NCBI GenBank assembly: GCA_030431975.1
Contig: JAUIHP010000001.1
Location: 331,597 to 395,596, forward strand
Length of the DNA: 64,000 nucleotides
Origin: a bacterium
Lineage (GTDB): Bacteria > Eisenbacteria > RBG-16-71-46 > CAIMUX01
Direction of reading: 5' to 3'
Shown here: piece after piece, positions 7,625 to 58,145 of the stretch
Layout of the letters: the number at the start of each line of letters is the position of its first letter
Numbering within the stretch: position 1 is the stretch's first letter
The notes under the pieces: model-generated
What the model was told of the DNA's origin: nothing
Seen by the model: only the letters and a program-made list of their open reading frames with translations
The model's database searches: none
Position numbers and translations under genes: made by a program

Positions 7625-8197
7625 ATGGGCTCTATTGTCGGGCGTCTAACTCCGATCCTTCTCATTCTCGTCGCCGAGACAGCCCTTGCGTCCTGGATCC
7701 GAACGAACCAGTTTCAAGTCGATCCGTCGGAAGCCGTTGTCGACTCCCTGCCACCCGCGGCCCCTATCCTCGGTGTCCGAGGGGTCGTCCCCGGCAGGCC
7801 GCGAAAACCCGGCGAGTCAGCCGGGTATCCCTACTGTGACCCCAGTGCTCCGTACCACTCTGGGCGTATCCGGCTTGAAGTCATACCACCGGAAGACGAT
7901 CGCACTCCGGATCTCAAGCTCGGATACATCTTCGATCTGGTCGCAGGCGAGATCCCGGACGGCCTGGAGTTTCCAACAGATCCGCAACGATCGTCGTGGA
8001 CGAAATGGCCGGTCATTGCCTCCGATGAACCGCTCTTCGTCGCACCGCTCAATCTCGTTTGGCTCGGCGGGGAGACGTGGCCGGCATTCAGCTGCAGCTT
8101 GCGCATCGCCGCCATCGATCTGGGAGGGAACATCGGTCCGTTCTCCAACACGGTGCTCGTCGAGTATCGTGACGACGACAGCGCGACGAGCAGGTGA
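7625..8197 (+). CDS. hypothetical secreted protein
   Basis: ATG 7625 'MGSIVGRLTPILLILVAETALA' signal-like; no recognisable domain. Confidence 0.4.
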   Translation: MGSIVGRLTPILLILVAETALASWIRTNQFQVDPSEAVVDSLPPAAPILGVRGVVPGRPRKPGESAGYPYCDPSAPYHSGRIRLEVIPPEDDRTPDLKLGYIFDLVAGEIPDGLEFPTDPQRSSWTKWPVIASDEPLFVAPLNLVWLGGETWPAFSCSLRIAAIDLGGNIGPFSNTVLVEYRDDDSATSR

Positions 8198-8472
8198 GGA
8201 GTCCCGTGATCCAACACACCCACTTTGGCTGCTATGGGATCCTCACCCTCGGCGACTGCATCGCTCTGATCCGAAAGGCCCGCGGACCGTATACGGGTCT
8301 TCTCGACCTCCCCGGAGGAAAGCCCGAATTCGGCGAACATCCGGACGCTGCAGTCATACGGCGCTGTGTGGTTCCCGCTGGAATCGGTCACTCCCGACGT
8401 CGCAACGCCGTTCGCCGCCAATGCAGCCAGATTCGTCACCGCTCTCCCTGCAACACCCCCAACACCTCTTGA
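8194..8472 (+). pseudogene. degenerate/truncated NUDIX-like ORF (Nudix box lacks catalytic Glu residues)
   Basis: 'GGKPEFGEHPDAAVIRRCVVPAGIG' aligns to Nudix box G-x5-E-x7-REUxEExGU with G and U conserved but RE->RR and EE->VP; only 92 aa. Confidence 0.3.
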
Positions 8473-9242
8473 TGAAAGCGCCCGTTCGTCGCAACCGCAC
8501 TCCCCCCGGCGATCGTCGCCTCGCCCTTCCAGTCGGTAAACTGCCCGCCGGCTTCCTGGATGATGGGTAGCAGTGGCGCCGAGTCCCAAATGTTCATCAG
8601 CGGATCGATGGCGACCTCGGCCCGGCCGGTTGCGACCAGCGCATAGGCGTAGCAGTCTCCCCAGCCGCGAGTCTTGCCGGAACGCTCCACAAGAGTCGGG
8701 AACGTCGTGGGATCCTGAAACAACGACGCGGAAGTCGTGCAGAGCATCGCGTCCTTCCACTTGGAGACGTCTGAGACCCGGGCGGGTTGCAGCGCCTCCT
8801 TTCTACGACCGACCCATGCGCCGTGTCCGGAGTAGGCGTAGATGACTTCACCCAACGCGGGAAGCGCGAGGATTCCTCCGACGGCGCGGCCGGTCCACTC
8901 GATGCCGACGAGAGTTCCGAAGAGCGGGACGCCGCGGACGAAAGACTCGGTCCCGTCGATAGGGTCCAGGATCCAGCGGAACTCACGGCCGAGTTTCTCG
9001 CCGTACTCCTCTCCGAGAATGCCGTCGTCGGGAAAGCGGGACTCAATGCGTTTGCGGAGCAACTCCTCGGCGCCGCGGTCGGCGACCGTAACGGGAGAGT
9101 CATCTCCCTTCCGGTCGATGACCAGATCCTCTGTTCGGAAATGCGAGAGGATGAGTTCGAAGACGGGGTCCATGAGCTCGAGCCCGAACCGCACGCGTTC
9201 GGCGACGGCCTGTTCGATCGCGTCGTGTTCTCTAGAGGTCAT
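8436..9242 (-). CDS. inositol monophosphatase family protein (IMPase / histidinol-phosphatase HisN-like)
   Basis: 'WILDPIDGTESF' metal-binding motif and 'GWGDCYAYALVATGRAEVAIDP' typical of IMPase fold; 268 aa. Confidence 0.8.
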   Translation of the reverse strand: MTSREHDAIEQAVAERVRFGLELMDPVFELILSHFRTEDLVIDRKGDDSPVTVADRGAEELLRKRIESRFPDDGILGEEYGEKLGREFRWILDPIDGTESFVRGVPLFGTLVGIEWTGRAVGGILALPALGEVIYAYSGHGAWVGRRKEALQPARVSDVSKWKDAMLCTTSASLFQDPTTFPTLVERSGKTRGWGDCYAYALVATGRAEVAIDPLMNIWDSAPLLPIIQEAGGQFTDWKGEATIAGGSAVATNGRFHQEVLGVLQGER

Positions 9243-21696: not shown

Positions 21697-22635
21697 TCAG
21701 TTCTGCCAAATGGCATTCGACGGAACAACGACGTTGGTTTCGACGCCCTGTCCGCGGAACGCGTAGTGAAGCTCCAGATTCGAAGGCACTGGAACACCGA
21801 GTTCCCCGGCCGTAAAGTAACCGGAACTCCTCGCGGCCCGAAGAGCTGCCTGATCCAGCTCTTCATTGCCACAAGACTTCAAAAGCTTCAGCTCAAAGAG
21901 CTGGCCGCGCTCTCCGGCGCGAACATGCACGACGACGTCGTGATTCAGATCGTTGCCGGCGAGGCTGGTCGGAATACGCGGCGTGGCCTCCCGAACGGCC
22001 CGAGCGTCGGTCCGCGGCAGGCGTGGATGCTTTCCGGACTCAACCTCTTCGATGAAACGGGCGGTGGCCTTTTCCCGCGCCTCTTCCGAGCGGGCCATGA
22101 TGAACAACTCCGCCAGGTCCGCCTCGACTTCGCGCGTTTGCTCCCGTTCCTGTTCTCCGGCGATTCTGATCTGGTCCGTAATCTCGAAAGTGAAGACAGG
22201 CGGTTTGGGGCACGTCGGCCCTTTGCAGTAGTCGGTGGTCAGTTCCTGACCGTCGCGCAGGACGAGCAGCCGCATCCGAGGGATATAGAACTCGACCCCG
22301 ATCCAAGGAACCCAAAGCTCATTGCCGTTCGAATCAAACGCTTGGAGTCCATCCGGCCGGTAGATGTCACATTCCTCGGGAAGCACAACCCAGGAAGTTT
22401 CGGCGGGGCGGGTGCGGTAGTCGATAAATCCGATGAGCCAGGAAAGCTCGTCCGCAACATAGGCGGCGCCGCATTCATTGCAGTCCAAGCCGGCGTTCCC
22501 GGCGGCCCGTTCGGTTTGAACGTAACAATCCGGACAAACCCATGTCTCGGCCTGAACCGATCCGAAACCGACGAGCAAGAAGATGCCAACCCAAAGCCAG
22601 GCGCGCCCGTTCGGGAGCACACGCAGTGCGGTCAC
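21697..22635 (-). CDS. periplasmic protein with TonB C-terminal-like domain
   Basis: GTG 22635 six nt after AAGGAGGG; signal 'MTALRVLPNGRAWLWVGIFLLVGFGSVQA'; C-terminus 'VVVHVRAGERGQLFELKLLKSCGNEELDQAALRAARSSGYFTAGELGVPVPSNLELHYAF' matches TonB_C pattern. Confidence 0.55.
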   Translation of the reverse strand: MTALRVLPNGRAWLWVGIFLLVGFGSVQAETWVCPDCYVQTERAAGNAGLDCNECGAAYVADELSWLIGFIDYRTRPAETSWVVLPEECDIYRPDGLQAFDSNGNELWVPWIGVEFYIPRMRLLVLRDGQELTTDYCKGPTCPKPPVFTFEITDQIRIAGEQEREQTREVEADLAELFIMARSEEAREKATARFIEEVESGKHPRLPRTDARAVREATPRIPTSLAGNDLNHDVVVHVRAGERGQLFELKLLKSCGNEELDQAALRAARSSGYFTAGELGVPVPSNLELHYAFRGQGVETNVVVPSNAIWQN

Positions 22636-22924
22636 GAAGTCCCTCCTTCGCAATGTTTGTCCGTGAGTGACGGGCTCGGCGCACTCCGCTGATTCGGGAG
22701 TGCGAAGGCGAGTCAAAGGGATGCCTTGAGGCCCTCTTCACGAAACCCCGGCTGCCGTCGCGGCAGCATGTCCTGGGGAGCCGGCGCATGCCGGACTCCT
22801 TTTATTGTACACCGCGGATTGCGCTTTTGTCCGCCGCGAACCTGAGTTTCAGGGAGCCTCCCCACCACGACTAACACTTTGGGAATCAAGCGCTTACGTC
22901 TAGATATGCTGGATTCTGGCCGGT

Positions 22925-23345
22925 TTAGCGAATCAGAAATGACTCGGCTGGACTCTGGGCCCGAACGGAGTTGTCAGACGAGGACCGGAGCTCGACCTGC
23001 CAGAAGTATTTCCCCGGCTCGGTCGTGGGTGGAAGCTCGATCCAAGCTTGGTGGCCGTCAACCGTGGACTTTCCGTAAACCGCTCCCAGAGAGTCTGTTA
23101 CGGTGACCTGATACCGGACTTGGCCGGGGCTGGTGAGCCGGGCCGCCGTCAGGGAGTCGGCGTCCCAACGGAACCCGATCTTGGGAAGAACGAGAACATC
23201 GCCGCTGGCAGGTTCTAGGTTCGTGAAGACCTGGGTCGCCTCGAGGGAGGCGGGCTCTCCGCCGGCAACCGGTCTCGATTCCCCGCCGGTGTCCGCCTCA
23301 CCCTTATCGCCACCGCCACAGCCACCGAGAGCCAGGACAGCGACG
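22925..23345 (-). CDS. lipoprotein-like ORF with no canonical in-frame start codon (possible pseudogene or non-canonical start)
   Basis: Minus-strand frame reads '...RNRAFWACAFCTCVAVLALGGCGGGDKGEADTGG...YQVTVTDSLGAVYGKSTVDGHQAWIELPPTTEPGKYFWQVELRSS...FLIR*' (signal/lipobox + Ig/FN3-like body) but no ATG/GTG/TTG in frame back to stop at 23579-81; not in the supplied ORF track. Confidence 0.3.
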
Positions 23346-23361
23346 CAGGTGCAAAAGGCGC

Positions 23362-23490
23362 AGGCCCAAAAGGCACGGTTCCGGAAGGTGTCGGTCCGGA
23401 AGCCGCAGGCCCGGAGGGTGCGGGCCCAGAAACCGCAGGCCCGGGAAGCGCGGGCCCGGAAGGCGGGGCTCCGGAACTTGGGGATCCGGC
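23362..23490. repeat. 15-bp tandem repeat (~8.5 copies), consensus GGCCCGGAAGNNGCR
   Basis: ggcccaaaaggcacg/gttccggaaggtgtc/ggtccggaagccgca/ggcccggagggtgcg/ggcccagaaaccgca/ggcccgggaagcgcg/ggcccggaaggcggg/gctccggaacttggg. Confidence 0.85.
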
Positions 23491-23585
23491 GTCGGAGTGG
23501 ATAATCGGTTCGGGAGCTGATGGCGCGGTCTCCGGTTTTGCGTTCGAAACGGCAAACTAGGGGCGGAGAAGCGGCCTGTCAACGC

Positions 23586-24620
23586 TCAGGCGACCGCAAG
23601 GAAGTCGCGTCCCTCCCGCCAGCCTCGTCGCCGGAGCTCGGCACGGATCAGATCCCGGGCACCGGCTACGCCCACCGCGGCCAGAACCATCGGATGCGGA
23701 CCCGACGCCGGGCCGTCAGGGGACCCCACTTCTTCCAACCAGGACGACGCTTCGACGATGGGAGTGTCATGGGCGCGCCGACCGATCTTCTTCGGATCGA
23801 TATCGAGAAAGAGACGAACACGCGCCCCTTCGGCAAGAAAGGCCCGGGCGAAACGGCGGCCGTCCTTCCCCGCACCCCAGATGACGGTCTCTCTGTCTCC
23901 GAGATACCTCTTCAAGTGATGAACGCGGCAGGCCAGGAATCGTTCCGCTTCGTACTCCGGAAGAGTTCGCGACGCCCGACCGGGATCGTCGACCCATCGG
24001 TACAGGGGTTCGTCCACTTTGACCATCGAAACGCCGTGCCGTCTCAGTCGCAACCAAAGGTCGTAGTCCTCAGGCCACCCGCGATCCCGATAGCCTCCGA
24101 CTGCTTCAAAACAATGCCGCCTCAGAACGACCGTGGGGTGAGGGAGCGGCGATTCGACCCAGAGCCCGTTTGCGATCTCGTCCGGCTGAACACAACTGGA
24201 GACCCACTCGGCGTAGCGGCGTCCGCCGTCCGTCAGCGGTGATCCGTCGTGTTCGACTTGGCAGCTGACCAAACCAAGATCTGGGTCACGCTCGAGTCGG
24301 GCGAGCTGTTTCTCGAGACGCGTCGGCATGGAAACGTCGTCAGCGTCCTGTCTCGCGAGTAGATGGGTACGAGCCATAGCTGCGGCTTGGTTGAGAGCGG
24401 TCACGATTCCCAGCGGCTTCTGAGTGCACCCGCGAAACCTTCGGTCCGCCTCTTCGAAACGGCGAATGATGTCCGGCGTCTCGTCGGTCGAACCGTCGTC
24501 GACAATGCAGCATTCGAAGTCGGGGCGGGTTTGTGCCTGAAGCGATTGCAGCGCGGCGGTCAGAGTCTGGGCCCCGTTCCGAACGGGAAGGAGAATCGAG
24601 ACCGTGGGAGTCGGGCTCAC
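23586..24620 (-). CDS. glycosyltransferase family 2 with C-terminal extension
   Basis: 'SILLPVRNGAQTL...CCIVDDGSTDET', 'DADD' and 'WPEDYDLWLRL' GT2-A motifs. Confidence 0.8.
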   Translation of the reverse strand: MSPTPTVSILLPVRNGAQTLTAALQSLQAQTRPDFECCIVDDGSTDETPDIIRRFEEADRRFRGCTQKPLGIVTALNQAAAMARTHLLARQDADDVSMPTRLEKQLARLERDPDLGLVSCQVEHDGSPLTDGGRRYAEWVSSCVQPDEIANGLWVESPLPHPTVVLRRHCFEAVGGYRDRGWPEDYDLWLRLRRHGVSMVKVDEPLYRWVDDPGRASRTLPEYEAERFLACRVHHLKRYLGDRETVIWGAGKDGRRFARAFLAEGARVRLFLDIDPKKIGRRAHDTPIVEASSWLEEVGSPDGPASGPHPMVLAAVGVAGARDLIRAELRRRGWREGRDFLAVA

Positions 24621-24624
24621 CCGA

Positions 24625-26298
24625 TCACCGGGTCCCGGTTTGCGCGCCCAGCTGCTCCGGGACGGCGATATGTGGTTGTCGGGACTCGAAACTTGCCTTC
24701 AGTCTTTCGGCCTCCGTCTCTGCCAACGTGCCTTTCCCGCCGAAGACCGCTTGCGCAAGCTTCCTCGCAACGGGCAGCACCTGTTCCGGATCCTGTGCTC
24801 CGTCCATCCGACGGAGGACAAGGTCGTCGAGGTGTCTCGCGCCTTCTTCCGCCGCGATCTGCCGAAGATTGAGCGCGGCCGACGCTGGAGCCCGTTCCAG
24901 CTGCTCGACAAAGATTGCGAAACTCATCGGTCCGCGGGACGCAGGGCGTTTGCCGGATCCCAATGAACGCTTTCCCAAAACACGGTCACAGGTTGTGCGC
25001 GCAACTTCCGGAGCGGTCGTGTACTTGAGTCCGACGGAGGCGTAGAGCCCTTCGAGTTGTTTCACTTCGACCCAGACGTCGCGGTGCGGCATCTCCGGAT
25101 CGCTTTCGGATCGGCTGAGCAGTCGCCCGGCAGTCAGGCCAAGCCGGCGGCGCTGGTCCAACTGAAGACTGGGAACAAAACGCGAGACCGATTGAAGGAA
25201 GCGGTCCACGGAGTCCTGGGAAACAGGGGGCACGCCGGAGCACTCTATTGCCGCGTCCTTTGAAGAAGTGCTCCCACCGGTGGCTGCTGTTGCCGAGCCC
25301 TTTGAAGGCAAGCTCTCCCTTTCGATCTCGTGCACCGTGCCGACATGGGTCACGCCGTTTGCGCTCCACATGAATGCGTTCTGTCCATCACGCGCGGGCA
25401 GCGCGATTCCGTTCTCCCCGAAAATGTCTCCTTCGATGACGACGTTGTAGGCGCGCGAGGTGGGTAGAGACGGCAAGGCTTCGCCGAGTCCCCAGGCGGA
25501 GAGAAGTCGGGACGTTGCGGGCCCGGTTGTCATGACGACGCGCCGCCCTGACACCTGGTACTCCTGATCTGTCGGCGCATCACCGGCCGACGCATCACGA
25601 GTCGACGCATCACCAATCGACGCATCACCCGCCGACTCATCATCGGAGAGCGATCTAACACGAACTCCCTTCAGGTTTCCGGACGAGACCCAAGGTCCCT
25701 CGACGCTGGCGTAGTTGCAAACGTCGGCGCCACACGAAACCGCCCAGCGGAGCATTTCGATATGCAACCGTTGCTGCGAGGGCAACCAACCGTCATGCCA
25801 GGCGGCGGCGCCAACCCATCCGGATAGGAAAGGGCACTCTCGCTGCAGATCCGATTGGGAAAGAAGGCGTCCTCCTCCCAAGAGAGAGCGATGAGGACCG
25901 GCATCCCCGTTGAGCCGTCTTCCGAACTGACGATCCAGGAGAAACGCAGACCGAAAGACGAACGGCCGGCGTAGTCCTTTACCGTCCAAGGGCAGAAGAA
26001 AACGTCGTGTGCCCGTCAGTTCGGGAAAGTGCCCGAGGAACCAGGCGCGCGCACGAACGGATTCGCGGAACCGCTCCAGGTCGAACGACTGGAGATAGCG
26101 CAAACCGCCATGCAGAATGCGCAGGCTGTTGGACGAAGTCTCGGCGCCGAAGTCTCCCCGTTCGAGCAGCAGCACGGAATGGCCGCGTCGCGCCGCCTCA
26201 AGAGTCAGGCAGATGCCATGAATTCCGCCGCCCACGACGATGAGGTCGTACTGTTGCGCGACCGCCTCGTCAACGTTGCGCAGGAAGCGGCCGTTCAC
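24625..26298 (-). CDS. FAD-dependent oxidoreductase (GlpA/GlpD-like DAO family)
   Basis: Rossmann 'YDLIVVGGGIHG', 'LRILHGGLRYL' as in glycerol-3-phosphate dehydrogenase family; 557 aa with Ser/Asp/Ala-rich insert. Confidence 0.7.
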   Translation of the reverse strand: MNGRFLRNVDEAVAQQYDLIVVGGGIHGICLTLEAARRGHSVLLLERGDFGAETSSNSLRILHGGLRYLQSFDLERFRESVRARAWFLGHFPELTGTRRFLLPLDGKGLRRPFVFRSAFLLDRQFGRRLNGDAGPHRSLLGGGRLLSQSDLQRECPFLSGWVGAAAWHDGWLPSQQRLHIEMLRWAVSCGADVCNYASVEGPWVSSGNLKGVRVRSLSDDESAGDASIGDASTRDASAGDAPTDQEYQVSGRRVVMTTGPATSRLLSAWGLGEALPSLPTSRAYNVVIEGDIFGENGIALPARDGQNAFMWSANGVTHVGTVHEIERESLPSKGSATAATGGSTSSKDAAIECSGVPPVSQDSVDRFLQSVSRFVPSLQLDQRRRLGLTAGRLLSRSESDPEMPHRDVWVEVKQLEGLYASVGLKYTTAPEVARTTCDRVLGKRSLGSGKRPASRGPMSFAIFVEQLERAPASAALNLRQIAAEEGARHLDDLVLRRMDGAQDPEQVLPVARKLAQAVFGGKGTLAETEAERLKASFESRQPHIAVPEQLGAQTGTR

Positions 26299-44300: not shown

Positions 44301-45272
44301 GAGTGTTTCCACGGAACGCTGACTGTAGGAGTCGAACTCGCGGATGGAGAGGATTTCGTCCCCATCGAACTCGATTCGAATCGGGTTGTTGCGACCGAAA
44401 CTGAAGACGTCAAGGATGCCGCCGCGACGGCTGACTTCACCGTACTCCGAAACCATCGAAACCGATTGGAAACCGTCGCCGACGAGGAGTTCCATCATGA
44501 AGTCCAGGTCGACCGAGTCACCGACACGAACGTGATGGATGGATCGCGCAAACGTTTCTTTGGACGGCACCGGCGAGAGCAGACTGACCGCCGTCACCAC
44601 GACGACACGAAGGTTCCCGCAGGCCGGCAGGCCCCCGCGACGAGCTGGATCGGAAAGAGCGGCCAGAAGTTCGATGCGGTTGGCGCGGAGAGACAATGCC
44701 GGGTGGCGCGAGTGATAGGGATCCAACCCGGGATCGGGCAAGGTCGCCACGGTTCCGCGACCGAGAAGGAACTGCAGGTCTTCCTTCAGGTCCTCCGCGG
44801 ACGCAAGGTCGGGTACGACGACGACAACCTCCCGGGCCCGCTCCGCGGCGATGGAGGCAACGAAAAGAGCGCGGGACGAACCCGCGAGTCCCCGCAGCCA
44901 AATGGGCTTGCGTGTCGACTCGTCTGCATCGAGTCGGGAGGTGACGCGACCGAAGGCCGTGGTCTTGCGGAACCGATCGACCAGGGTTTGCGCGATGGCA
45001 GATGGTCCGGCGGATGGTCCGGCAGTTCCCCCGCCGTCCGGTCCGGTGCCTGGTTTAGTGTCCGGCCCAGCATGGCCGGCAGTCCTGGCGGAACCTGCGT
45101 CTCCCGAACCGGATTCCGAGCCGGCCTTCGCGTTGGCAGATCCAGGGTCACCGGCCGCGGAGATACCTGGCTTGTTGGGACTAGAACCGGCCCCTGGCTG
45201 GCCACCCGGTGAAGATGGCGTCTTCGTGGTCACTCTTTCGATTCCTCCATCCCACTGCCGGGCCGCCCCCAA
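41355..45272 (-). CDS. mfd: transcription-repair coupling factor Mfd (N-terminal start uncertain)
   Basis: 'GDFVVHVEHGIGCF' KOW-like TRCF motif, DEAD-box helicase motifs 'GDVGYGKTEVA', 'LIIDEEQLFGV', TRG 'TATPIPRT', C-terminal TRCF domain; low-complexity G/P/S/A-rich first ~100 aa. Confidence 0.9.
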   Translation of the reverse strand: MGAARQWDGGIERVTTKTPSSPGGQPGAGSSPNKPGISAAGDPGSANAKAGSESGSGDAGSARTAGHAGPDTKPGTGPDGGGTAGPSAGPSAIAQTLVDRFRKTTAFGRVTSRLDADESTRKPIWLRGLAGSSRALFVASIAAERAREVVVVVPDLASAEDLKEDLQFLLGRGTVATLPDPGLDPYHSRHPALSLRANRIELLAALSDPARRGGLPACGNLRVVVVTAVSLLSPVPSKETFARSIHHVRVGDSVDLDFMMELLVGDGFQSVSMVSEYGEVSRRGGILDVFSFGRNNPIRIEFDGDEILSIREFDSYSQRSVETLDEVVVLPVWEWLPSAEAIRRIRENPTDGVDEDDWERMVDSLETDGTLEGIEWVLPSLGIDRVPLRDYFPENSMVVVDGPTYVRSRQNAWEADVQQAYEALEKMADPLAGHFGLTPGAPDDLFYLGEDLVEQLPSGKHIMVGSGVDLSSAPSEAQPDNGSDTGLNANPGTDKPINIVHADFRGHAHGEAATADLSTKEGRIEARIDESDGTDAGKFSFGTVPPETFGRQLDRTRGYLRTLFDRTPEMYILCDTEAHMDRLRELLHRLPAQFHVGNLANGFLMPDEGLSVLTDHEIFSRSRRRTAPRRYARGLSIKELLALSPGDFVVHVEHGIGCFKGMNRLTVDGQETDCLSLEYSGGDTLYVPVDQLMKVQKYAGGDSAKPQLSKMGGKSWAKTKAKVKKTIKDMAEELIKTYSIRKSRPGFGYSADNEYMKELEASFPFDETPDQARAIEEVKTDMESEHPMDRLICGDVGYGKTEVAVRAAFKAAQDGKQVAILVPTTLLAKQHFESFRKRLDGMPIVIDYVSRFRSTKETKEIMERVTLGQIDVLIGTHKILGKDVKFKDLGLLIIDEEQLFGVKAKEKLKKYRETVDVLTLTATPIPRTMHFSLMGGRDMSLILTPPRNRLPIQTEVLEFRDDVIAHALMQEADRGGQSFFVHNRVQTIDQMATYISNLVPHLRIAVAHGQMREKLLETVMRDFLEGEYDVLVSTMIIESGLDLPNVNTIVINRGDMFGLSQLYQLRGRVGRSSRKAYAYLLLPPHRVVTEQAQKRLKAMEEFEDLGSGYQLALRDLEIRGAGDLLGSQQSGFIISVGFELYCSLLEEAVRELKGIETVEVREPKMVTDIEAFLPEDYVPDPREKINLYKSIADARHTDELEKIAADLNDRFGKHPEPVRHLLALRRIRVLAAAGGIERVVVRDDLVQMELARDLEKSEIGELVRAVPGQVEFDLGGRHKIKMKSPGPGEAISKSLILLKALGQNA

Positions 45273-47005
45273 CCGTTGGCCGCTGCATGCACATCCACAC
45301 GGAGTGTCATCGGTTCACCGTCTGCGGAAGTGCGACACGGTACGGTCCGGGTCATGTTCCCGACGTCAACATGCACCACGTATTCGCGTCCCGGCTGCAG
45401 CCGGGCGGTCAGATGGTCGTTCATGTCGGCGCGGTCCGAACGGGTCACGCCCGCAAACACTCGCGCTCCTGATGTGTCGCGTACTTCGATTCGCGTTGGC
45501 ACTCGTTCTTCCCTCTGGTCGTAAGCGACAAAGCGGACGAGAGCCTTGCGGTCCGTGCCCGTCCGTCCGGTAGTGCGGGGAGCGTACCGATCCGTCACGT
45601 TGACGCCGTGGACGTAGTGGACATTCAGGTCCCAGGACATTGGAAAGATCGTGCCTGTCCGTTCGTAGCTCGTCGCATAGATGGCGTGAACGGGAACGTC
45701 TTTCTGCGCACGCGCCGCCCGGTCGCCGAACCAGACATCGTTGAGACGATCGCCGGCCGGCTCCGCGGCGCCGGTGTAGAACCATTCTCCGTCCCAAACC
45801 TCGACCCAGGAATGATTCCCGCTGCTGTCCGCCCAAAGCGGAGTCCCGACCAGTCGAGCCGGCACGCCAACGGAACGACACGCATGGGTCAACAGAACGG
45901 AGAGACCAGTACACGTTGCTTTCTGCTCTTCCACCACCTGAGACACAGACTGGTCGTTACGGGAACGCTCCTTCGAGTAGATGACACCGTAGTGCGGAAA
46001 GATCTCCTGGTTCAGCCGGACCGCAGCTTCCGAAGGCGACTTCGATCCGGCGACAATTTCAAGACACGTCTCCCGCAGGATGGGCCTCCAACGATCGCGC
46101 GGCTCCGTCACCGAGTAGTAAGGAAGAATGCCGTTGAGAAAGAGCTCACGTGAGACGCGGCCCTTCCACGGAGACGACTCCCACGCACGATAGGCGTAGT
46201 CGACATGTTCGAGCAGAAACTCCGCATCGAGAGTACGCAGGTCGTGGGCCGGCATGTGTTCGATGAGGAAGGCCATACCGGTCCGCTGTGCATGAGGAAC
46301 GGTCCGCCAGGCCCGTTCGATCTCGTTCCCATTGGCTCCGGCGGTGCGGACTGCAGAGGTTACGTAGTCGGGCATGGTCGCCGCAGATGAGCCGGCCGAC
46401 AGTGAGGGAGTCGCGCTGAGGACCAATGCACAGGCGCCGATGGTGGCGCTGATGAGCACACGAAGTCGTCCGGCTAGTCCGGGTAGGTCGGGTCGTCCGG
46501 GTCGTCCGGGCCATCCGGGTAGTTCGGGTAGTTCGGGTAGTTCGGGTAGTTCGGGTATTTCGGGTAGTTCGGGTAGTTCGGGTAGTTCGGGTAGTTCGGG
46601 AATGATGGACGAATCAAGCAAGCCGAGCGGTCCGGATGTAGCTTTGGCCAGCGACGGAACCATCGCGTCTCTGCGTTGCCTCCGCCCCCTCGTGGATGAC
46701 GATCGGACGGAGCCGCCGAGCCGGCCAAGCGACTGGCGTTGTCTCTCGCTTCCGGATCCGAGCTTTGGGCCACTCTCTGGCGGTCGGTTCATCTTTGACA
46801 CTCTTCTCGCCTCTCGTCGGCCTGTCGGCTCGTCGGCGTTTTGGCACTCGTCGGCCTGTCGGCTTTCGTCGGCTCGTGGGCTCGTGGGCGTTTTCGGCTC
46901 TCGTCGGCCTGTCGGCATCGTCGTTTTTGGCGCACGGCAAATGATCCGAAAGCCGAGACCTTCGCCTCCGCGTTCGGCATTCCTGCCGGAGAATCCCCGC
47001 CGCAA
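45230..47005 (-). CDS. transglutaminase-like cysteine protease domain protein (start uncertain)
   Basis: Transglutaminase core 'CTGLSVLLTHACRSVGVPARLV...GNHSWVEVWDGEWF'; candidate start GTG 46459 before hydrophobic 'LISATIGACALVLSATPSLSA'; the ORF extends to 47005 through (PEL)n repeats and an Arg/Lys-rich region. Confidence 0.6.
   Translation of the reverse strand: MRRGFSGRNAERGGEGLGFRIICRAPKTTMPTGRREPKTPTSPRADESRQADECQNADEPTGRREARRVSKMNRPPESGPKLGSGSERQRQSLGRLGGSVRSSSTRGRRQRRDAMVPSLAKATSGPLGLLDSSIIPELPELPELPELPEIPELPELPELPELPGWPGRPGRPDLPGLAGRLRVLISATIGACALVLSATPSLSAGSSAATMPDYVTSAVRTAGANGNEIERAWRTVPHAQRTGMAFLIEHMPAHDLRTLDAEFLLEHVDYAYRAWESSPWKGRVSRELFLNGILPYYSVTEPRDRWRPILRETCLEIVAGSKSPSEAAVRLNQEIFPHYGVIYSKERSRNDQSVSQVVEEQKATCTGLSVLLTHACRSVGVPARLVGTPLWADSSGNHSWVEVWDGEWFYTGAAEPAGDRLNDVWFGDRAARAQKDVPVHAIYATSYERTGTIFPMSWDLNVHYVHGVNVTDRYAPRTTGRTGTDRKALVRFVAYDQREERVPTRIEVRDTSGARVFAGVTRSDRADMNDHLTARLQPGREYVVHVDVGNMTRTVPCRTSADGEPMTLRVDVHAAANGWGRPGSGMEESKE
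46479..46600. repeat. 9-bp tandem repeat (GGGTAGTTC)n, ~13 copies; encodes (PEL)n if translated on minus strand
   Basis: 'ccgggtagttcgggtagttcgggtagttcgggtagttcgggtatttcgggtagttcgggtagttcgggtagttcgggtagttcggg' with degenerate copies upstream. Confidence 0.9.
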
Positions 47006-47163
47006 CGTTGGGATGACTCGCCGACCTCCGTCGCCAGATTCTACCTCAACTGGTCAAATCTGCACGATCTGGTATCCTCCTCCGCTGACAATTCAGATGC
47101 GTCTTTAATTCTCGTGTTGGCGGACCTGCCCGATGACGTCCGCCTCTCGTCGGGGGAGATGAA

Positions 47164-49659: not shown

Positions 49660-49965
49660 GCCGGCGTAGGCATTCCCGGACGGCTCGCGCATACCAAACC
49701 GGCTATTGCATTGCCAACCGGCTCGCACATTCCCCAACCGGCGTACGCATTCCGGGACGGCTCGCGCATACCAAACCGGCTACTGCATTGCCAACCGGCT
49801 CGCTCATTCCCAACCGGCGTACGCACTCCGGGACGGCTCTCTCATACCAGACCGGCTGGTGCATTCCCCGAGCGCACGCATTCGCCAAGCGGCGCTCGCA
49901 TTCCCTGGCCAACGCATTCCCCATCCAGCGCACGCATTGCCTACGGGCTCGCCCCTTCCCCAGCC
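49660..49965. repeat. ~76-bp tandem repeat x ~4 (progressively degenerate) with internal GCATTCC...ACCGGCT sub-repeats
   Basis: 'GCATTCCCGGACGGCTCGCGCATACCAAACCGGCTATTGCATTGCCAACCGGCTCGCACATTCCCCAACCGGCGTAC' then a near-identical copy at 49738-49813, then diverged copies. Confidence 0.85.
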
Positions 49966-50160
49966 GGCGCAGACCTCTTTCGAAGCGGGCACTGGAGTGA
50001 CCGCCTTCAAAGGAACCAACGCCGGAGTTCGGACAATTCGCACAACAAGAGTGAGCCAACTCGGTTGATCAGGATCCGCCCTTCCCGGGACGCAAACGCC
50101 ACCCTTCCTCTTCTGACGTCCCGGAGGTGTCGAGGAGAAAAACTGATGGCGGGCACTTAC

Positions 50161-50258
50161 GCCTGGTCCCGTACGACTCGTCCCGTACGACTGGTGCCGT
50201 ACGACTGGTCCCGGACGACTAGTCCCGCACTCCTGGTCCCGCACTCCTGGTCCCGTAA
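50161..50258. repeat. 14-15-bp tandem repeat (GTCCCGTACGACTNG) x 7
   Basis: 'ggtcccgtacgactcgtcccgtacgactggtgccgtacgactggtcccggacgactagtcccgcactcctggtcccgcactcctggtcccgtaag'. Confidence 0.85.
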
Positions 50259-50417
50259 GACCCTTCCAGAGGCTCGATTGAACTCTTCCGGGCTGGCGGC
50301 CGGCTGCGAGACACGCGAACCGGCACCTTCCTTGGGTTCGCAGCCCTATCTGCCAGCCATGAGCGAGTGGTCGGAGGGCAACCGGATCCTGAGCGAGTTC
50401 GGACTCGGACTTCTTCG

Positions 50418-50483
50418 GGATCGAGTCTGGTCGTGGCAGGGATCGCGGTTGGTCGAGGCGGGGATCGCGCTTGGTCGTGGCAG
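50418..50483. repeat. 18-bp tandem repeat (GGTCGTGGCAGGGATCGC) x 3
   Basis: 'gtctggtcgtggcagggatcgcggttggtcgaggcggggatcgcgcttggtcgtggcagggatcgccgctg'. Confidence 0.8.
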
Positions 50484-50630
50484 GGATCGCCGCTGACTGG
50501 GCTCCGCTCCGACCGATGAACGAGACAGTTTCCGTCTATAGTGGAATGTCGCGACTCTTCGGAGAGGCGAAAGCCGTGATGTTCGGGTCGGTCCCTGCTA
50601 TGCTCGCGCAGCGAAATGGAGGGTTCAATC

Positions 50631-52429: not shown

Positions 52430-52660
52430 GATCTCTCGCCGGGTTCGTTATGTCGGGTTCGTTATGTCGGGTTCGTTCATCACGTCGTTTCGCAAGGTCG
52501 TTCGTCAGGCTCGTTCGTCAGGTTCGTTCGTCGGGTTGGGTCCTCGGGTTGGGTCCTCGGGTTGGGTCCTCGGGTTGGGTCCTCGGGTTGGGTCGTCAGG
52601 CTCGCTTTGTCAGGTTTGTTCGTCGGGTTTGTCTCGTCAGGTGCGCCCGTCCTTGGGGGG
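52430..52660. repeat. array of related ~13-bp tandem units (GGGTTCGTTATGTC x3; GNTCGTTCGTCAG x3; GGGTTGGGTCCTC x5; degenerate tail)
   Basis: 'cgggttgggtcctcgggttgggtcctcgggttgggtcctcgggttgggtcctcgggttgggtcgtcagg' flanked by 'gggttcgttatgtcgggttcgttatgtc' and 'caggctcgttcgtcaggttcgttcgtcggg'. Confidence 0.85.
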
Positions 52661-54912: not shown

Positions 54913-55090
54913 CGAGCTCGGGCGTCGAGCTCGGGCGTCGAGCTCGGGCGTCGGGCTCGGGTGCCGCGCTCGGGCGCGTGCTCGGGTGCCGCGCTCGGGC
55001 GCGCACTCAGGCGTCGGGCTCGGGTGCCGCGCTCGGGCGCGAGCTCAGGCGCCGTGCTCGGGTGCCGTGCTCGGGCGCGCTCGGGTGTGT
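54913..55090. repeat. 12-13-bp tandem repeat (GCTCGGGCGYSN) x ~14
   Basis: 'gagctcgggcgtcgagctcgggcgtcgagctcgggcgtcgggctcgggtgccgcgctcgggcgcgtgctcgggtgccgcgctcgggcgcg...'. Confidence 0.85.
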
Positions 55091-56958: not shown

Positions 56959-57276
56959 CGGCGGACTATACGGCCCCAAAGTCGCAGCTGTCCAGATCCG
57001 GCCGCCGGCAGACGGGCGGGACCGAGCAACTCCATGAACGCCGCCGCCAGGCGCGGACGGGCCCATACGCCGGAGGAAACTGGACGCGCACTATGCGGGC
57101 GGGTGGGAACCCGCGCCTAACGAAGCTGGACGCCGCACCGGGCAGTTGGGCACCCGTGCCTCACAAAAGCCGGTCGCTGTCTTGGGCAGTTGGGCACCCG
57201 TGCCTCAGAAGAGCTGGTCGCTGTCGTGGTGGACCGGCGGCTCACGAACCCTGCCGCTGCGGCCGATGCCTGCAGT

Positions 57277-57837: not shown

Positions 57838-57849
57838 CCCCGGCACCCG

Positions 57850-58145
57850 ACGGGATCCGCGTTCCAGCCTACGACGAAATCCGTGCTCCAGCCTCCGACG
57901 GCATCCGCGCTCCAGCACCCAGCGGAATCCGTGGTCCAACACCCGACGGAATCCGCGTTCCAGCACCCCCCGACAGAGTCCGCGTTCCACCACCTGGCGG
58001 AATCCGCGTTCCGGCACCCGACGAAATCCGTGCTTCAGCCTCCGACGGAACCCGCGCTCCAGCACCCGACGGAACCCGTGCTCCAGCCTCCGACGAAATC
58101 CGTGCTTCAGCCTCTGACGGAACCCGCGCTGCAACACCCGGCGGC
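57850..58145. repeat. 24-bp tandem repeat x ~12, consensus CCGACGGAATCCGCGYTCCAGCAC
   Basis: 'ccgacgaaatccgtgctccagcctccgacggcatccgcgctccagcacccagcggaatccgtggtccaacacccgacggaatccgcgttccagcacccc...'; no convincing ORF in any frame. Confidence 0.85.

Follow-up and report, generated by a model that had tools for sequence, protein, structure and literature searches.

The 64,000-nt stretch of DNA analyzed here (the window) comes from a bacterium of the Eisenbacteria lineage (NCBI GenBank assembly GCA_030431975.1, contig JAUIHP010000001.1, positions 331,597 to 395,596 of the forward strand). On its minus strand, between a glycosyltransferase gene of the GT2 family and a gene for a TonB_C-like protein, lies an open reading frame (ORF) for a lipoprotein-like product that has no canonical start codon and whose signal-peptide region contains a tandem array of 15-bp units. 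The analysis identifies the ORF as a conserved small lipoprotein gene that is either weakly translated or freshly dead, and not as a phase-variation switch. The features of the locus are as follows, in window coordinates and in the direction of transcription.

23586..24620, minus strand: gene of the GT2 glycosyltransferase, the upstream synteny anchor
23577..23582, minus strand: predicted -35 hexamer TTGACA, 3 nt past the GT2 stop codon and including TTG 23582
23554..23559, minus strand: predicted -10 hexamer TAGTTT, after a spacer of 17 bp
23530..23533, minus strand: putative Shine-Dalgarno (SD)-like GGAG, 8 nt upstream of ATC 23521
23519..23521, minus strand: ATC in the lipoprotein frame, a candidate for a non-canonical start codon or a former one
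23342..23491, minus strand: degenerate 15-bp array with a 30-bp higher-order period, consensus TTCCGGGCCTGCGCC, giving FRxxx pentapeptides in the lipoprotein frame
23318..23374, minus strand: hydrophobic core and lipobox, AFWACAFCTCVAVLALGG-C, with the Cys+1 codon TGT at 23320..23318, placed by hydropathy and ortholog alignment
22925..23320, minus strand: predicted mature lipoprotein of 131 aa, a beta sandwich of fibronectin type III (FN3)/Ig-like type, with the stop codon TAA at 22927..22925
21697..22716, minus strand: gene of the TonB_C-like protein (Pfam TonB_C, E = 2.3e-5), an intact and conserved neighbor

The lipoprotein frame runs from 23578 to 22928 (217 codons) and contains not a single ATG, GTG or TTG. 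Because these codons are absent, gene callers miss it; the preliminary description had noted as much from the ORF calls available to it, and the Logan gene calls likewise skip the frame. Of the window's stop-to-stop frames that reach 120 codons and score positively as coding, it alone has no canonical start. Codon usage gave the body of the gene a log-likelihood of +29.8 in the lipoprotein frame, as against -43.6 and -42.1 in the two other frames, and the 393-nt body carries no stop codon and no frameshift or indel. An AlphaFold2 model of the body is a confident beta sandwich with FN3 matches, in agreement with the Ig/FN3-like fold that had been guessed from the translation.

Homology was reached only via positional orthologs next to the GT2 gene. 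Searching proteins directly with the window ORF gave no match, nor did scans of genome and metagenome contigs for close relatives. No close relative of the window genome was found; the best relatives of the GT2 protein are about 60% identical proteins of Candidatus Eisenbacteria metagenome-assembled genomes (MAGs). The loci of relatives are referred to below as L002, L003, L004, L006, L007, L010, L011 and L012. At every syntenic locus fetched, a gene of 180 to 275 aa that is homologous to the window frame lies between the GT2 and TonB_C-like genes. The order GT2, lipoprotein, TonB_C-like also occurs in L002, L004 and L007, and the window TonB_C-like protein is 48 to 51% identical to the protein encoded next after the lipoprotein gene in L006 and L012. 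The TonB_C-like protein is a likely functional partner of the lipoprotein.

The homologs share the motifs DVLVPPQIGFRW and VDSIGAIYA…LPPxTEPGxYxWxVE…ETFEIR, and have ordinary lipoprotein signals with ATG or GTG starts and lipoboxes such as FAAC, FLGC and IAGC. Profile searches found the family to consist of 7 proteins in 5.8 billion clustered sequences and of 31 representatives in 1.84 billion proteins, all of them small and with an N-terminal signal or anchor. Scanned against Pfam and NCBIfam, the family had no significant match. A family-profile scan of Joint Genome Institute (JGI) metagenomes returned nothing, and a scan of species-representative genomes returned only two contigs, both already known. 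In an alignment of 18 sequences, the window copy keeps all 10 invariant columns and both of the near-invariant ones. It has the motifs GD.LV.P.IGFRW and LPP..PG.Y.W.VE, with the promoter described below upstream and the TonB_C-like gene downstream. Judged by motifs, synteny and codon usage, the ORF is a genuine gene and the positional ortholog of a small lipoprotein family.

In two of the related loci, an extra reversed gene is present between the GT2 and lipoprotein genes (L002, 7157..7774, and L007, 7136..7753, minus strand, in locus coordinates). It encodes a 205-aa secreted protein (MKKVIAVAIGLLCVSSAAMA…) with no Pfam match, and is absent in the window, L004 and L006.

The promoter lies immediately downstream of the GT2 gene. 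The pattern TTGACA-N16-18-TAnnnT occurs once in the window, both strands considered, against 0.19 occurrences expected. The same arrangement of -35 hexamer, 17-bp spacer and -10 hexamer precedes the orthologous gene in L004, L006, L007 and L012, and with TTTACA in L002. The 10 nt at and after the -10 hexamer (TTGCCGTTTC, overlapping its last two bases) are identical to those of L012. A consensus promoter scan did not list the TAGTTT site, which matches TATAAT at three of six positions. On this comparative evidence, the lipoprotein gene still carries the conserved sigma-70-type promoter of its family.

The position of the promoter bears on an earlier suggestion that a 1-bp slip within the array would connect the frame to an ATG at 23582. 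The codon there is TTG and belongs to the GT2 frame, and such a rescue fails because this TTG is within the -35 hexamer, upstream of the likely transcript start. At the other end of the gene, a promoter-like sequence (CGGACA-18-TACAAT, 22804..22833, minus strand) occupies part of the 209 bp that separate the lipoprotein stop codon from the TonB_C-like gene, which suggests that these two genes may be transcribed separately.

The lipoprotein frame reads …PLRRRIPK-(FRSPA FRARA SRACG FWART LRACG FRTDT FRNRA FWACA FCTCV)-AVLALGG-C-GGGDKGE…FLIR, where the bracketed residues are encoded by the 15-bp array, and it includes the signal-like segment RNRAFWACAFCTCVAVLALGGC. Lipoprotein signals were recognized by an h-region of about 7 to 22 residues followed directly by a lipobox of the form [LVI][ASTVIG][GAS]C. 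Both are present in AFWACAFCTCVAVLALGG-C, which has a Kyte-Doolittle mean hydropathy over 11 residues of 1.9 to 2.6 and the lipobox L-G-G-C, as is typical of a substrate of signal peptidase II (SPase II). The lipobox aligns with those of the orthologs (FAAC, FLGC, IAGC, LAGGC, VSAC and VFGC; L012 reads RFWLC…ALGGIGC), and the lipoprotein signal that had been called convincing from the translation was borne out in this respect. The initiator codon and short positive n-region of SPase II substrates have no counterpart here, the frame being devoid of canonical starts. A signal peptide of the twin-arginine translocation (Tat) type was considered and rejected: PLRRRIPK only loosely resembles S/T-R-R-x-F-L-K, and, with the array in between, it stands about 35 residues ahead of the h-region.

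The array was originally counted as 8.5 copies of a 15-bp repeat. Its 15-bp periodicity is real: self-match reaches 0.67, 0.63 and 0.61 at lags of 15, 30 and 45, where the background is about 0.3, and the units follow one another at exactly 15 bp, free of indels. But the repeat is degenerate, and is better described as nine units (23476..23342) plus a weak one (23491..23477). Identity between neighboring units is 68%, no unit occurs twice, and the longest exact repeat is 12 nt, at the 30-bp lag; Tandem Repeats Finder (TRF) reported 70 to 87% matches. The placement of the array also had to be revised. It had been taken to precede the ORF directly and to encode everything upstream in frame, whereas units 8 and 9 encode FWACA and FCTCV, which are the beginning of the hydrophobic core, and 29 non-repeat codons lie farther upstream, still in the open lipoprotein frame.

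The units upstream of 8 and 9 differ from these two mainly by T-to-C changes (TGG to CGG and TGC to CGC), giving FRxxx. The FWAC at the start of the h-region matches RFWLC of the L012 ortholog in the same frame. Because units 8 and 9 form the start of the core and L012 has RFWLC there, it is most likely that the first five h-region codons were duplicated in tandem to give the array. A search for the unit as a dispersed repeat gave few matches outside the array, each with 2 to 3 mismatches. The preliminary description had proposed that array and ORF be compared in related strains; orthologs of the ORF were found as described above, and a tandem repeat in the signal-peptide region was found in none of them. 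Since the units have diverged by about 32% without an indel, while the body kept its invariant residues and acquired no stop or indel, the array and a gene under selection would have coexisted for long, and the odd N-terminus would have been tolerated.

These properties argue against the contingency locus that had been envisaged, in which changes in the number of 15-bp copies would vary the length of the N-terminus, or a slip would toggle the gene. A tandem array within the 5' part of the coding sequence, in a gene for a surface-type lipoprotein, is what such a locus would show, the 12-nt exact repeat at the 30-bp lag could permit rare gains or losses of 30 bp, and a 2-bp indel in the signal-peptide region separates strains of a relative. 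Slipped-strand mispairing, however, calls for perfect repeats, and with units about 68% identical and none alike these are absent: the array is not a near-perfect simple-sequence repeat. A 15-bp unit preserves the frame, as had been pointed out, and for that reason cannot switch it; the array is downstream of the promoter, so that promoter spacing is unaffected. Copy-number changes would alter only a segment that leaves with the cleaved signal peptide. The supposed rescue start at 23582 is the TTG of the -35 hexamer, the array is missing from the orthologs, and no copy-number variant was among the sequences found. The array is therefore not read as a switch, being too degenerate for a useful slippage rate and frame-preserving in its unit, and a phase- or length-variable locus is considered very improbable.

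The array might instead have been shaped in another frame. Translation could start at GTG 23376 (in the frame that reads SGPA through the array) or at TTG 23582 (in the GT2 frame) and then shift, or the array could encode a product of SGPAP repeats on the minus strand or of GAGPE repeats on the plus strand. The variation between units has phase sums of 15, 8 and 6, with its peak at first codon positions of the lipoprotein frame (a weak signal, chi-square p ~0.1), and it is thereby concentrated where the SGPA frame and its plus-strand counterpart have their wobble positions; both of these frames are open across the array. Against this, the period-3 signal is weak at this p value, the SGPA frame has a log-likelihood of -10.7 and a G+C content at third codon positions (GC3) of 0.53 compared with 0.73 in the window genes, and in neither alternative frame is there a canonical start upstream of the array. 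Selection of the array in the SGPAP or GAGPE frame was rejected on these grounds of weak variation signal, contrary codon usage and GC3, and absent starts. Programmed frameshifting from GTG 23376 or TTG 23582 was rejected as well: direct reading of the junction revealed no slippery heptamer, no supporting RNA structure was found, and TTG 23582 is in the promoter. Recoding or use of another frame is thus barely credible. The mRNA leader and array together showed no unusual RNA structure (fold z = -0.09) and no Rfam match, and an RNA element or riboswitch was rejected on this basis.

Tandem arrays also occur elsewhere in the window, for which TRF returned 63 rows over the whole 64 kb. A second in-frame 15-bp array (25576..25642, 4.5 copies, 82% matches) encodes GDASx pentapeptides (…SAGDASIGDASTRDASAGDAP…) within the gene of an FAD-dependent oxidoreductase of the DAO family (24625..26298, minus strand); because of it, in-frame 15-bp arrays are not unique to the lipoprotein gene in this genome. 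An ORF of about 600 codons (45230..47053, minus strand) contains 14 copies of a 9-bp unit (46471..46600) and an 18/52-bp array (46807..46923), and its protein probably carries internal repeats. Between 49600 and 58200 there is a dense cluster of arrays whose unit lengths are mostly not multiples of three and which apparently lie largely between long ORFs. Examples are found at 49661..49865, 50158..50261, 50417..50490, 52436..52642, 54913..55079, 57096..57229 and 57846..58144, with units of 77 bp x2.7, 14 bp x7.4, 22 bp x3.4, 13 bp x15.7, 13 bp x13 (also 38 bp x4.3), 44 bp and 24 bp x12.

With the promoter and the core in place, the question becomes where translation could begin. Between the likely transcript start and the hydrophobic core, the only near-cognate codons in frame are ATC 23521, ATC 23485 and AAG 23479; CTG 23335 falls inside the core. 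No SD motif precedes ATC 23485. ATC 23521 lies 32 nt from the -10 hexamer, the ortholog starts being 36 to 64 nt past theirs, and its distance to the lipobox Cys, with the array subtracted, is about 27 to 32 codons, as in the orthologs. It is preceded by GGAG, and clear SD motifs precede many genes in the window. Given its position and the putative SD motif, ATC 23521 is the one plausible initiation codon of the frame. In E. coli measurements that covered all 64 codons, initiation at AUC reached about 1 to 2% (range 0.02 to 3%) of the AUG level, and the product had an N-terminal Met (bioRxiv 10.1101/063800).

The reading tentatively preferred, with somewhat less than an even chance, is that the gene is still translated, weakly, from AUC 23521 and gives a lipidated FN3-like product. 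A 15-bp piece at the boundary of the n- and h-regions (the FWACA codons) would have been duplicated in tandem in this lineage, partly as 30-bp double units, and the array would then have decayed to about 68% identity between units. As a result, some 45 Arg-rich residues of the FRxxx type would stand ahead of an otherwise normal core and lipobox. The expected start position is now occupied by ATC (23521..23519), at which initiation may proceed with a few percent or less of AUG efficiency. The predicted product is a precursor of 198 aa with a 67-residue signal peptide whose n-region has a net charge of +11. If this long basic n-region is compatible with export, signal peptidase II would cut before Cys68 and leave a 131-aa lipidated FN3-like protein, which may act with the adjacent TonB_C-like protein.

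Several observations weigh against weak translation from this codon. A canonical start is missing and AUC is a very poor initiator. The ATC is not conserved, since all other family members seen begin with ATG or GTG. The GGAG before it is a minimal 4-mer, and such 4-mers have a background of 14% per random 15-nt window. Counted from ATC 23521, the n-region has about 49 residues, a net charge of +11 and several Cys, and is far from a normal Sec/SPase II signal. Codon usage over the array and the 29 codons upstream of it gave a coding signal in no frame, and the peak of unit-to-unit variation at the first codon position is the opposite of what purifying selection in the lipoprotein frame would produce, weak as that signal is (p ~0.1). 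In the best DNA alignment to L012, the 6 nt that hold the ATG of L012 are absent in the window. The same gene is also frame-disrupted in several relatives whose neighboring genes are intact.

Much of this evidence fits a recent pseudogene, whose start was removed by a substitution to ATC or a small deletion just past the -10 hexamer, which no longer undergoes useful translation, and whose body has not yet decayed. The preliminary description had offered a pseudogene as one of two options, and of the two it is the one that stands as a live alternative: a canonical start is missing, as it observed, and the body is intact. An essential expression element, the canonical start codon, is missing from 217 codons, a situation unique in the window; the signal peptide is aberrant, with no coding signal upstream of the h-region; and the ATG region of L012 is missing in the alignment. 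DNA alignment of the 5' region to L012 and L010 paired the promoter and first transcribed bases well, and farther down different segments supported different frames. The gap at the ATG of L012 hints that the ancestral start was lost rather than converted.

The relatives point in the same direction, the gene being frame-disrupted in L002, L003, L011, L010 and L007 next to intact neighbors. L002, L003 and L011 lack 2 bp (TTTC[CC]GGG) relative to strain L010, and their conserved ATG is thereby out of frame; the L010 ortholog has a -1 change in a run of five C. The L007 ortholog (8084..8960, MAG GCA_041390305.1) has two compensating frameshifts with about 55 conserved codons in the other frame between intact neighbors, and is either a pseudogene or a local sequencing problem. 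Because the gene is disrupted in this way in several relatives, the comparison shows it to be dispensable and prone to loss.

Some further details of these relatives were recorded. L002, L003, L011 and L010 are assemblies from one related Eisenbacteria species. In the signal-peptide region of the ortholog, L002 (8245..8260), L003 and L011 read TTTCGGGCC, and L010 (1741..1760) reads TTTCCCGGGCC. The ATG is in frame only in L010; L002, L003 and L011 have an in-frame CTG 6 nt after GGAGG, a different codon at a different site from ATC 23521. Over 2.7 kb, both indels between L010 and L002 fall in the lipoprotein ortholog.

What a pseudogene does not readily explain is the state of the rest of the window copy. 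Relaxed constraint is not evident in the body: its 131 mature codons are undamaged, score strongly as coding and retain every residue that is invariant in the family. The promoter, too, is perfectly preserved, and 74 codons are open upstream of the Cys. The age of the array, in addition, implies that the unusual N-terminus was tolerated under selection on the body. On balance, a recent pseudogene is nearly as likely as weak initiation at AUC.

A start codon might also be hidden by an error in the consensus or assembly; the true sequence would then have ATG at 23521, or would differ by 1 nt so that GTG 23376 falls in frame. A strain-mixed consensus would have the same effect. A single change, C to G at 23519, restores a textbook gene with an SD motif, and the source of the window is a metagenome-assembled genome. 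The only other copy found, in a public Logan assembly (run ERR3428548), matches at 100% identity across 11 kb that include the locus, which counts against an error, with the limit that it may derive from the same reads. The neighboring genes in the window have no frameshifts. All array units differ and so provide unique k-mers, and a collapse of the array could occur only in multiples of 15 or 30 bp. GTG 23376, if brought into frame, would give a signal peptide with no charged n-region. An assembly error is accordingly regarded as improbable.

A stronger form of the preferred weak initiation at AUC 23521 assigns a role to the array itself. The FRxxx array would be a translated and selected extension of the n-region and, with the weak AUC start, would throttle or time the export of a lipoprotein partner of the TonB-like protein. 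Upstream copies of the hydrophobic FWACA unit would have become FRxxx through the TGG-to-CGG and TGC-to-CGC changes. Such selection is considered unlikely. If true, the region would be an 'extended lipoprotein signal peptide' built from repeats, of a kind not known to have been described.

For annotation, the value of the locus lies in a conserved, promoter-equipped lipoprotein gene that is invisible to standard gene callers. Together with its relatives, it defines a small uncharacterized family of FN3-like lipoproteins, whose genes in Eisenbacteria-type genomes always have a TonB_C-like gene as their partner. If still expressed, the gene would combine natural AUC initiation with a repeat-expanded signal peptide. 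If dead, it would show with unusual clarity how gene loss begins, with the start gone and the rest intact, in keeping with its disruption in related lineages. Either outcome leaves general principles unchanged: this is an ordinary object with one lineage-specific curiosity, a decayed in-frame minisatellite in a signal peptide.

Among known systems, genes with non-AUG starts such as E. coli infC and pcnB resemble the window gene in having an AUH near-cognate codon at the expected start position behind an SD-like motif, and low-level initiation would be expected by analogy. The AUU of infC is conserved and serves autoregulation. The ATC of the window gene, in contrast, is lineage-specific, its orthologs using ATG or GTG, and may simply be a lesion. 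The extended signal peptide region (ESPR) of autotransporters offers a second parallel, in that the window gene has an unusually long signal (67 residues) with an extension before a normal n/h/c core. The ESPR, a conserved motif of type V secreted proteins, is not made of repeats; similarity to it was not detected, the whole 217-aa frame having no Pfam match.

Contingency loci of Neisseria, Haemophilus and Campylobacter have perfect, frame-changing repeats with units of 1 to 7 nt. The window gene is like them in carrying a tandem repeat in the 5' coding part of an envelope lipoprotein gene, but its units are 15 nt long, about 68% alike and frame-preserving. The Vlp genes of Mycoplasma hyorhinis are likewise lipoprotein genes with in-frame repeats able to change length. 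Vlp repeats are near-perfect and belong to the mature, surface-exposed region, whereas those of the window gene are degenerate and belong to the cleaved signal peptide.

The closest match is the Eisenbacteria-type family of FN3-like lipoproteins, exemplified by R3E97_06295 of Candidatus Eisenbacteria. The window gene shares with it the motifs F..L.P..GD.LV.P.IGFRW and LPP..PG.Y.W.VE…S…F.I, a signal with a lipobox, the place upstream of a TonB_C-like gene and the TTGACA-17-TAnnnT promoter. It has no canonical start, carries in the signal peptide a nine-unit array that occurs in no other member, and does not have the acidic middle insert of its closest relatives. By motifs, position and predicted promoter, the window gene is a bona fide member of this uncharacterized family of small FN3-like lipoproteins.

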